A DNA stretch of 59,548 nt from Verrucomicrobiia bacterium (GTDB taxonomy: Bacteria > Verrucomicrobiota > Verrucomicrobiia > Palsa-1439). The notes under the pieces were generated by a model. The model had not been told where the DNA came from, searched no databases, and saw nothing but the letters and a program-made list of their open reading frames with translations. Where the stretch lies: contig JBEKYJ010000001.1 in assembly GCA_049511095.1 (NCBI GenBank), positions 1 through 59,548 of the forward strand, written 5' to 3'. Made by a program: the position numbers and the translations under genes. Positions 23,272 to 25,372 of the stretch are shown one piece after another; position 1 is the first letter of the stretch, and the number at the start of each line of letters is the position of its first letter.

Positions 23272-23550
23272 ATGGGACGGTCCCTGAAAAAAGGCCCCTT
23301 TGTTGACGACCATTTGATGAAGAAGGTCGAGACAATGAAGGTCAGCGACAAGAAGCCGATCAAGACCTGGTCGCGACGCTCAATGATTGTCCCCGAGTTC
23401 GTGGGACACACGTTTCTGGTACACAACGGCAAGGTGCACACGCCGGTGTTCGTGACCGAGAACATGGTGGGACATCGCCTCGGCGAATTCTCGCCAACCC
23501 GTACGTTCCGGGCGCACGGCGCCCACACGGAGAAGGCGGTCGCGAAGTAA
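23272..23550 (+). CDS. rpsS: 30S ribosomal protein S19
   Basis: 92 aa. Contains [19 protein letters not shown]...[31 protein letters not shown]. Confidence 0.98.
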
Positions 23551-23568
23551 CGCGGCCTGGAGCCAGTT

Positions 23569-24336
23569 GTGGCGGTACTTGGCGCGCGAACGAGAGTGTG
23601 TGCAGTTGGTTTGTTCTTTGCAGTAACAGGGCCGCTGGCCGTCGGAGGGGCGCCGGCCGCAACCGATGAGTTGCGGGTGTTGGTGGAGAGGCTGACCAAC
23701 GACAACGAGCGTCTCAAGACGGAACTCGATCAGCGCGAGACGGTCATTCGCCTGCTCACCGAGAACCTGGCGGTGGCCCGGACGGAGAGCGAGTTGTTCC
23801 AGAAGCAGTGGCGGGAAGCGCAGTTGCGGGCCCAGGCGCTCGGCGTCAACTTTGCCGATGACAGCGCGAGGCAGACGCAACGCCAGCTCGTGGAGAGCGT
23901 GCGGGCGCTGTACCTCGCGGAAGTGGAACGGCAACGATTGGTGGAGCAACTGCAGAGGTTGCTCGACGCCGTCCAGAAGCAGGGCGATATCGCCGGGGAG
24001 TTGGCGCGGACGAAGGCGCTCTTGGCGGCAGCGGAGAAACCCGCGGCCAACGAGGCGGGGAAGACTGGTGGGGTGGTCGGACAGGCGGGGGGCACGCTGG
24101 GGGCGGCCACGGTGTTGGATGTGAACCCGGACCTGCGGCTGGTGGTGCTGAACGTTGGTTTGCTGCAGGGCGCGCGGATTGGGATGCCGTTGATTGTGTT
24201 GCGCGGCGACCGCGTGATTGCGGAATTGAAGATTGTGGACGTGCGCCAGCGGATTTGCGGCGCGTTGATCGAACGGACGGAGAAGCAGGTCACGCTCAAG
24301 ACGGGAGACGTCGCGCGCGTGGCGAAGAACTCGTAA
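23569..24336 (+). CDS. Hypothetical exported coiled-coil protein with a C-terminal beta-rich domain, embedded in the S10 operon
   Basis: 255-aa ORF with a GTG start preceded by GGAG (6-nt spacer). It begins 18 nt after the rpsS stop and ends 10 nt before the rplV ATG. Third-codon positions are G/C-rich like the neighbours. The N-terminus (RTRVCAVGLFFAVTGPLAVGGA) looks like a signal peptide. About 130 aa of heptad-like E/L/Q/R-rich sequence follow, then a Gly-rich linker and a ~75-aa beta-type segment (VLDVNPDLRLVVLNVGLLQGARIGMPLIVLRGDRVIAELKIVDV...). I recognise no family. The 460-aa antisense ORF reads as R/H/P/Q-rich antisense noise. Confidence 0.7.
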   Translation: MAVLGARTRVCAVGLFFAVTGPLAVGGAPAATDELRVLVERLTNDNERLKTELDQRETVIRLLTENLAVARTESELFQKQWREAQLRAQALGVNFADDSARQTQRQLVESVRALYLAEVERQRLVEQLQRLLDAVQKQGDIAGELARTKALLAAAEKPAANEAGKTGGVVGQAGGTLGAATVLDVNPDLRLVVLNVGLLQGARIGMPLIVLRGDRVIAELKIVDVRQRICGALIERTEKQVTLKTGDVARVAKNS

Positions 24337-24346
24337 CGATGGATTT

Positions 24347-24682
24347 ATGGAAGTAACAGCGATCACAAAATATGCGCGGATGAGCCCGTCGAAGGTGGGC
24401 GAGGTGACGCGGCTGATCCAGGGATTGAGCGCCTCGAGCGCGCTGGAAGTGCTGCGGGTGATTCCGCGCAAGTCGGCGCGGATGATCGAAAAGACATTGA
24501 AGTCGGCGATCGCCAACGCGACGAACAACGCGAGCCTGGCGGCGGATGTGTTGATCGTGAAAGAAGCCGTGGCCAACGAAGGGCCGCGGTTGAAGCGCTG
24601 GCAGCCCAAGGCGCGGGGGAGTGCGGGCCCGATTATCAAACGGACCTCGCACATCCAGATCATATTGACGGATGGACAATAA
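24347..24682 (+). CDS. rplV: 50S ribosomal protein L22
   Basis: 111 aa. Contains AITKYARMSPSKVGEVTRLIQG...KRWQPKARGSAGPIIKRTSHI. Confidence 0.97.
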   Translation: MEVTAITKYARMSPSKVGEVTRLIQGLSASSALEVLRVIPRKSARMIEKTLKSAIANATNNASLAADVLIVKEAVANEGPRLKRWQPKARGSAGPIIKRTSHIQIILTDGQ

Positions 24683-24685
24683 GCT

Positions 24686-25372
24686 ATGGGACAAAAAACG
24701 AATCCAATTGGTTTTCGCGTGGCGGTCACCAAGGACTGGCTGTCGAAGTGGTACGCCGACAAGAAGGATTACGCGCCACTGTTGCTCGAAGACATCAAGA
24801 TTCGTGAGATTGTGAAAAAAAAGCTGGCCTCGGCCGCGGTCCCGAAGATTGCCATCGAGCGGTATGCGAACCGGGCGCGGATCACGATTTCAACCGCGCG
24901 TCCGGGGATTGTCATCGGCCGCAAGGGCGCGGAAATCGACAAGCTCAAGGAAGAGCTGGCCGCGTTGACCGGCAAGGAAATCTACGTGGATATCCTGGAA
25001 GTCAAGACGCCCGAGACGGACGCGCAGCTCGTGGCGGAGAACATCGCGCTGCAGTTGGAACGGCGCATCAGCTTCCGGCGGGCGATGAAGAAGGCCGTGC
25101 AGACGGCGATGGATTTTGGCGCGCAAGGAATCAAGGTGGCGTGCGGTGGCCGGCTGGGCGGCGCAGAGCTGGCGCGGCACGAGAAGTATCGGGTCGGCAA
25201 GATTCCGCTTCACACGTTGCGCGCGGACATTGATTACGGCCTGGCGGAAGCGCAGACGGTGTACGGCAAGATTGGGGTGAAGGTGTGGGTGTGCAAGGGT
25301 GAGCGGCCGTTGCGGGCCGCCGTGCCAGCGCAACCCGCGCCGATGCCCGTCGGCCCCGCGTCGTCAGGGTAG
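24686..25372 (+). CDS. rpsC: 30S ribosomal protein S3
   Basis: 228 aa. Starts [12 protein letters not shown] and has a KH domain. Confidence 0.98.

Follow-up and report, generated by a model that had tools for sequence, protein, structure and literature searches.

Genes for non-ribosomal proteins are found within bacterial ribosomal protein operons, examples being secY, adk, map and infA in the spc operon and rpoA in the alpha operon. The junction of rpsS and rplV in the S10 operon, encoding the ribosomal proteins S19 and L22, is among the most stable gene adjacencies in bacteria. In a 59,548-nucleotide stretch of DNA from a Verrucomicrobiia bacterium (contig JBEKYJ010000001.1; the whole stretch is referred to as the window) this junction is interrupted by a 255-codon open reading frame (ORF), here called X. 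The genes embedded in spc and alpha resemble X in that a non-ribosomal gene is kept over long evolutionary distances with minimal spacing. However, they are near-universal and have known functions, whereas X is phylum-restricted as far as sampled and breaks the rpsS-rplV junction. On balance, X is probably a vertically inherited Verrucomicrobiota gene for an exported periplasmic scaffold protein, built from a coiled coil and a beta-barrel, that is transcribed with the ribosomal genes. This proposal builds on the reality of the gene, its conservation, its synteny and the architecture and fold of its product, and reaches from these to export, oligomerisation, co-transcription and a scaffold function.

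Barrels of the kind found at the C-terminus of X are known from FlgT, TsaP and MreC, in which they serve to build, or to attach, the periplasmic scaffolds that surround envelope machines. FlgT, a protein of the Vibrio flagellar H ring, is periplasmic with a signal peptide, as is predicted for X, and has a six-stranded barrel of the same fold (template modelling (TM) score 0.70-0.71). The N-terminal barrel motif vvlN.G...Gv..Gmpf.v is common to both and is the source of the Pfam matches reported below. However, X is without the N and M domains of FlgT and has a long coiled coil instead, it is encoded in a ribosomal and not in a flagellar context, and the motif V(D/E)VRxxIxGA is specific to the X family. 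TsaP (PDB 3jc8), the ring protein associated with the secretin of type IV pili, is likewise periplasmic and has a FlgT-like barrel that is recognised by the domain profile of X, but no LysM or other peptidoglycan-binding domain was found in X, and both architecture and gene context differ. MreC (PF04085; NF010520) is the elongasome scaffold that activates PBP2. It shares with X a hydrophobic N-terminus, a coiled coil (dimerising in MreC) and a periplasmic beta-barrel, and there are weak sequence matches between the two. A lineage-specific conserved hypothetical protein of the bacteria of the Planctomycetes-Verrucomicrobia-Chlamydiae (PVC) superphylum is also said to exist, the 'signature protein of the PVC superphylum' of Lagkouvardos et al. 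in 2014, which is reportedly small, binds nucleic acids and is shared by all PVC phyla. X is comparable to this protein in being a conserved hypothetical protein of a PVC lineage, but differs in being a predicted exported coiled-coil protein that was seen only under Verrucomicrobiota names.

The position of X is conserved throughout the material analyzed. In 119 out of 119 loci with readable flanks, down to an X identity of ~27 %, X was either flanked by S19 and L22 or placed immediately ahead of L22. Distant members of the family, sharing 27-42 % identity with the window protein (P0244, P0270, P0271, P0180 and P0200), also showed the unchanged position. A scan of species-representative genomes yielded 26 loci, all in metagenome-assembled genomes (MAGs) of Verrucomicrobiia or Verrucomicrobiae and two of them from Chthoniobacterales (31-46 % X identity); together with four loci found earlier, the S19-X-L22 order was present in 30 of 30. 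A metagenome scan with a subgroup profile revealed at least 396 relatives. Among the best 80 of these loci, 75 had S19 and L22 on both sides, five were cut by a contig end and exceptions were not encountered, while their L2 proteins were only ~60-64 % identical to L2 of the window. X identity furthermore co-varied with the identity of S19 plus L22 (Spearman rho 0.64, p 1e-9, 71 loci), a pattern that vertical co-inheritance would produce. The genome collection was scanned once, with a pattern-limited search, and the metagenome scan made use of a subgroup alignment, the alignment of distant members being too diverse for a pattern scan. Searches with broad and distant profiles added few homologs, the word index favouring the close clade. 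All organism names attached to any member belong to Verrucomicrobiota and cover several orders (Verrucomicrobiae, Verrucomicrobiia, Chthoniobacterales, Terrimicrobium sp., Verrucomicrobiales and 'Verrucomicrobiota bacterium'). Comparison of the S10 operons of the lineage, as envisaged in the preliminary description of this DNA, placed rpsS-X-rplV in every sampled Verrucomicrobiota locus with readable flanks and an intact operon. The insertion of X at the rpsS-rplV junction is ancient and lineage-wide as far as sampled.

In the window the S10 operon follows fusA and precedes the spc operon, all on the forward strand. Its genes show the order S10-L3-L4-L23-L2-S19-L22-S3-L16-L29-S17 on one strand with minimal spacers, the sole deviation being X at the S19/L22 junction; related contigs have the same S10 gene order as judged from Pfam labels. 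Reading of the sequence confirmed that the 255-codon ORF at this junction is preceded by GGAG, six nucleotides and a GTG start codon. The TAA stop codons of rpsS (23548-23550) and X (24334-24336) lie 18 nucleotides ahead of the X start and 10 nucleotides ahead of the rplV ATG, respectively.

Several lines of evidence indicate that X is a genuine gene. The G+C content at third codon positions (GC3) of X is 0.82, compared to 0.75-0.82 in the flanking ribosomal genes. Nonsynonymous to synonymous substitution ratios (dN/dS; Nei-Gojobori) against 12 relatives were 0.17-0.37 for X, indicating purifying selection, with values of 0.04-0.14 for S19 and 0.05-0.13 for L22 in the same relatives. Within X the ratio was lowest in the coiled coil and the barrel (~0.1-0.25), approached 1 in the linker, and selection was relaxed in the fast-evolving signal peptide. 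A profile search among representatives clustered at 50 % identity gave 793 family members at E<=1e-3; a cutoff of E<=1e-10 left 318 of them and one of E<=1e-30 left 40. The majority of the 793 have a length of 240-300 amino acids and match end to end. GC-rich DNA does yield long spurious ORFs, and a 460-codon antisense ORF indeed covers X completely and reaches into both rpsS and rplV, so that X might itself be taken for an open frame that arose by chance in a GC-rich spacer, or for foreign DNA inserted recently. The purifying selection on X is of domain-specific strength, however, and hundreds of homologs share its architecture. The X frame is open in all relatives examined, while antisense frames are broken in many of them; the antisense ORF was rejected as a gene and attributed to a GC artefact. 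GC3 is as in the neighbouring genes, the arrangement is retained in loci with X identity as low as ~27 % and L2 identity as low as ~60 %, and X had no phage or defence-family match in PHROGs and PADLOC. The reading of X as a spurious or foreign ORF, which is left with practically no probability, is thus refuted; the preliminary description had already argued against a recent insertion and had named a frameshifted or absent X in close relatives as what would speak against a real gene. In one locus (L023, 2501..3268) X seems truncated at 212 amino acids by a single-base frameshift in a G-run, the downstream frame being perfectly conserved. This truncation most likely reflects a sequencing or assembly error in the MAG rather than decay.

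The N-terminus of X has the features of a Sec-type signal peptide as judged by hand and by hydropathy (12-residue window, Kyte-Doolittle >= 1.8). Its sequence is not conserved in the family, and a hydrophobic N-terminal segment preceded by Lys or Arg is present in 46 out of 51 diverse members. Cleavage-type AxA sites were seen by eye in the N-termini (AQA|Q, VTA|D), the window protein having APA|A. Manual analysis thus found the tripartite n-h-c pattern with small residues at -3 and -1 that is characteristic of Sec substrates of signal peptidase I (SPase I), from which cleavage would follow. A signal peptide ending in a lipobox ([LVI][ASTVI][GAS]C) was found in one of the 51 members; Cys11 of the window protein lies ahead of the hydrophobic core. 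Within the signal peptide region, nucleotides 23611..23620 (X codons 15-17, TTG TTC TTT, plus G; Leu-Phe-Phe) are identical in 26 out of 26 distinct close-clade sequences. This identity includes synonymous sites, despite a pairwise dS of ~0.7-1.2 and mixed local usage of Phe and Leu codons. RNAalifold pairs this U-rich tract with GAACGAG (23588-23594), with no compensatory changes. A U-rich ramp, a site of pausing or a site of binding may account for the conserved tract.

The preliminary description had proposed a layout of a signal-like N-terminus, a coiled coil, a Gly-rich linker and a compact beta domain, and this layout was reproduced by AlphaFold models and by the hydrophobic periodicity of the sequence. 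The coiled-coil region shows a periodicity of 3.4-3.5 residues, with a continuous a/d register from L35 to L91; many heptad Leu residues are invariant across the alignment and dN is far below dS. A profile search of PDB with full-length X returned coiled coils only (e.g. tetherin and vimentin), which are regarded as noise. The C-terminal barrel, modelled alone with a diverse alignment, reached a predicted local distance difference test score (pLDDT) of 93.9 and a predicted TM score (pTM) of 0.83. The barrel carries the family motifs GxxxGxRxGMP and V(D/E)VRxxIxGA. Positions G197, R226 and D247 are invariant, and G201, G205-M206-P207, R212, G231-A232 and G246 nearly so.

Foldseek searches of PDB with the barrel model gave as top matches FlgT in the Vibrio LPHT ring (8z5n) and the FlgT crystal structure (3w1e), with E-values of 2.6e-4 and 1.3e-3, respectively, followed by the N-terminal barrels of F1/V1-ATPase subunits. 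The full-length AlphaFold model matched F1-ATPase N-terminal barrels only. The six-stranded fold of the FlgT C-terminal domain is thus present in the predicted domain of X. Pfam FlgT_C (PF16538) was the most common family match, being obtained with 18 of 51 full-length sequences and, at E<=1, with 18 of 31 sequences of the domain alone (best E 3.7e-7), against 5 of 51 and 6 of 31 (best E 5e-4) for the barrel core of Pfam MreC (PF04085). The profile of the X barrel also detected TsaP (E 1.3e-3). It was previously suggested that the beta domain vaguely resembles barrels of MreC type or SH3/KOW-like barrels. The affinity to MreC was recovered in weaker form, nothing points to SH3/KOW, and the Foldseek search with the modelled C-terminal domain refines the assignment to the FlgT-C type.

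No curated family covers X, in line with the earlier remark that no family could be named, while its barrel is FlgT-C-like in fold. The window protein gave nothing significant in sequence searches of Pfam, NCBIfam, PHROGs, PADLOC and PDB. The product was also described as not ribosome-like; indeed, Pfam, NCBIfam and PDB showed no significant similarity to a ribosomal family, the only such match being eukaryotic L34a in PDB at chance level (E 0.75). In a large protein collection 271 homologs were present among the scored candidates, none with a precomputed Pfam domain and nearly all named 'hypothetical protein'. The possibility that the homologs form a known, annotated family commonly located at this junction therefore held for the location, where X is always found, and failed for the annotation, which consists of 'hypothetical protein' and scattered mislabels. 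A few members (P0100, P0101, P0155, P0321 and P0347) are labelled MreC, EnvC, 'chromosome segregation ATPase' or 'NADH dehydrogenase subunit G' in their source records. These labels look like coiled-coil-driven or transferred mislabels, family scans supporting none of them. A MexC-like adaptor identity (E 6.8e-5) was rejected, since the match comprised a 32-residue beta-hairpin motif only and the rest of a membrane-fusion protein is lacking. The barrel fold and the occurrence of non-ribosomal genes within ribosomal operons are already known. What looks new is a protein with predicted export, phylum-wide as far as sampled, that interrupts the rpsS-rplV junction.

Table 1 Coordinates of X, its domains and neighbouring features (positions in the window unless a locus is named)
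Feature	Position	Strand	Basis or remark
S10 ribosomal protein operon rpsJ-rplC-rplD-rplW-rplB-rpsS-[X]-rplV-rpsC-rplP-rpmC-rpsQ	20548..26360	+	ORF list, translations, Pfam for S19 and L22
rpsS (ribosomal protein S19), 92 amino acids	23272..23550	+	Pfam Ribosomal_S19 PF00203, E 2.1e-37
Antisense ORF, 460 codons, covering X in full, the rpsS 3' end and the rplV 5' end	23380..24762	-	Interrupted in many relatives
rpsS-X spacer, 18 nucleotides	23551..23568	+	GGAG at 23559-23562, 6 nucleotides, then GTG at 23569
X, 255-codon ORF, GTG start	23569..24336	+	ORF list and translation
X residues 1-30, predicted Sec-type signal peptide	23569..23658	+	Basic n-region, hydrophobic core CAVGLFFAVTGPLAV, A-P-A cleavage-type site
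X residues 31-156, alpha-helical coiled coil	23659..24036	+	AlphaFold model; helices 31-90, 98-136 and 141-156
X residues 157-176, Gly/Ala-rich linker	24037..24096	+	pLDDT <50, indels, poor alignment, dN/dS ~1
X residues 177-255 plus stop, six-stranded FlgT-C-type beta-barrel	24097..24336	+	AlphaFold domain model
rplV (ribosomal protein L22), 111 amino acids	24347..24682	+	Pfam Ribosomal_L22 PF00237, E 9.4e-34; begins 10 nucleotides past the X stop
Long L22, locus L029	3218..3694		
Long L22, locus L030	3093..3593		
Long L22, locus L033	3907..4401		
Long L22, locus L036	3838..4278		
Long L22, locus L039	3997..4431		

Some loci show further differences in the neighbourhood of X. In the distant locus L039 (P0262; 1..3996) the S10 operon is interrupted ahead of X, where kinase-type genes in the opposite orientation and a gap of ~500 nucleotides are found. 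X lies three nucleotides before rplV in this locus and heads an X-rplV-rpsC-rplP-rpmC-rpsQ block, so that it stays with rplV and not with rpsS. The L22 proteins of distant lineages comprise 144-166 amino acids with a C-terminal extension rich in Lys, Ala and Glu (Table 1), compared to 111-113 amino acids in the clade of the window; S3 of L039 is also long (304 amino acids). In L031 (3813..4364) the stored gene calls have no gene between X and S3, and tblastn places the start of L22 at 3901. The rplV gene is thus present and its call was missed.

As to the identity of X, the resemblance to MreC in general plan raises the possibility that X is a highly divergent MreC that was relocated into the S10 operon. 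The NCBIfam model for MreC (NF010520) matches X with an E-value of 0.099, a few records of the Joint Genome Institute (JGI) label homologs as MreC, and the MreC barrel core was detected in part of the family as described above. However, the NF010520 match scores 11.9 bits against a cutoff of 343, and the PF04085 matches of family members are below threshold, the window protein having none. Matches to FlgT_C outnumbered those to MreC threefold, and in structure the barrel comes closest to FlgT. MreC has two beta domains, whereas X has one barrel, and the AxA sites of X are of the cleavable type and do not suggest a membrane anchor. Genes mreB and mreD never adjoined X in the 119 loci, so the mreB-mreC-mreD context is absent. 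Taken together this makes a relocated MreC unlikely. Orthology to a ring component of flagella or pili, be it the H-ring protein FlgT or the secretin-associated TsaP, could account for FlgT being the best fold match, for the Pfam FlgT_C matches and for the detection of TsaP by the domain profile. Only the C-terminal barrel is held in common, though, with the coiled coil of X replacing the other domains, and FlgT_N, FlgT_M and LysM had no Pfam match in the window protein or the 51 members. The context was ribosomal in all loci, and flagellar or pilus genes were never seen. The same gene position in every sampled lineage fits a housekeeping role better than a role in an accessory organelle, and such orthology is considered very improbable.

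An equally faint possibility is that X is not exported at all. Its N-terminus would then be a membrane anchor or irrelevant, and X would have its site of action in the cytoplasm, at ribosomes or at the translocon, explaining its adjacency to the gene for L22, which is a protein of the ribosomal tunnel. The strict linkage of X to rplV, even in the split operon of L039, agrees with this. However, the N-termini show the n-h-c pattern with basic residues before the hydrophobic core, which orients the C-terminus of X outward whether or not the peptide is cleaved. Similarity to ribosomal or RNA-binding families was not found, and mature X is not basic (33 Lys plus Arg vs 31 Asp plus Glu).

With respect to expression, the 18-nucleotide spacer, the GGAG/GGGAG motif and the GTG start codon (TTG in some) are conserved in the close clade, with an X-rplV gap of 8-17 nucleotides. 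The spacers of 18 and 10 nucleotides leave no room for a promoter or terminator of X itself, as was noted before. Transcribed with the ribosomal protein genes, X would be synthesized in step with ribosome production. This spacing is most simply explained by co-transcription with the S10 genes, which is inferred from it. A regulatory RNA element at the rpsS-X junction was rejected, the structure being non-significant (z = +0.67) and free of compensatory pairs. Rfam detected only tRNAs over the window, and promoter-like and terminator-like matches between 18 and 34 kb of the window were at chance level. It was also proposed that X is stoichiometrically coupled with ribosomal proteins. This is doubtful and finds no support, a weak GTG or TTG start being conserved in the close clade; such a conserved non-ATG start points to a separate translation level for X, which is probably lower than in the adjacent genes.

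Some findings weigh against X being an exported envelope scaffold that is expressed with the ribosomal genes. The barrel fold is generic and is common also to the N-terminal domains of F1-ATPase, so that the fold alone leaves the function unfixed. The window protein had no FlgT_C match at E<=1 and reached no Pfam threshold. The FlgT_C matches of family members are mostly sub-threshold, and six of them that were inspected individually scored 18-20 bits, below the gathering cutoff of 27 bits, and covered profile positions 4-27 only. The N-terminus may possibly be an uncleaved signal anchor. Promoters may lie inside upstream coding sequence; one promoter-like site occurs in rplB, with the count of such sites at chance. 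The taxonomic range of X, finally, is taken from the names of sampled members alone.

The scaffold reading of X can be put in the following terms. X would be synthesized as a precursor with a cleavable Sec signal peptide and delivered to the periplasm, where its heptad region of ~125 residues would oligomerise into a coiled-coil stalk. A flexible linker would carry the C-terminal FlgT-C-type barrel as a conserved docking module for a partner. By analogy with the barrels of FlgT, TsaP and MreC, X is most likely a structural or scaffolding protein of the envelope. The retention of a predicted exported, non-ribosomal protein at the rpsS-rplV junction across the deepest sampled splits suggests selection for co-expression with ribosomes, and the tying of transcription to ribosomal protein output may be the selected feature that keeps X in place. 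A bolder and rather doubtful extension is that X is an abundant architectural element of the envelope throughout the phylum, for instance one that acts as a spacer in the periplasm or ties envelope layers together, with its transcription hard-wired to S10. It would then be analogous, but unrelated, to Lpp and MreC.

If this were true, the supply of an envelope element would be coupled directly to ribosome synthesis and hence to growth rate. The insertion of X provides a clean, synapomorphy-like marker for Verrucomicrobiota, and X, being clearly modular in design, is a candidate envelope-architecture factor in a phylum with a debated cell plan. The practical value lies in annotation: with the family defined, the labels MreC, EnvC and 'chromosome segregation ATPase' that some of its members now carry are corrected.

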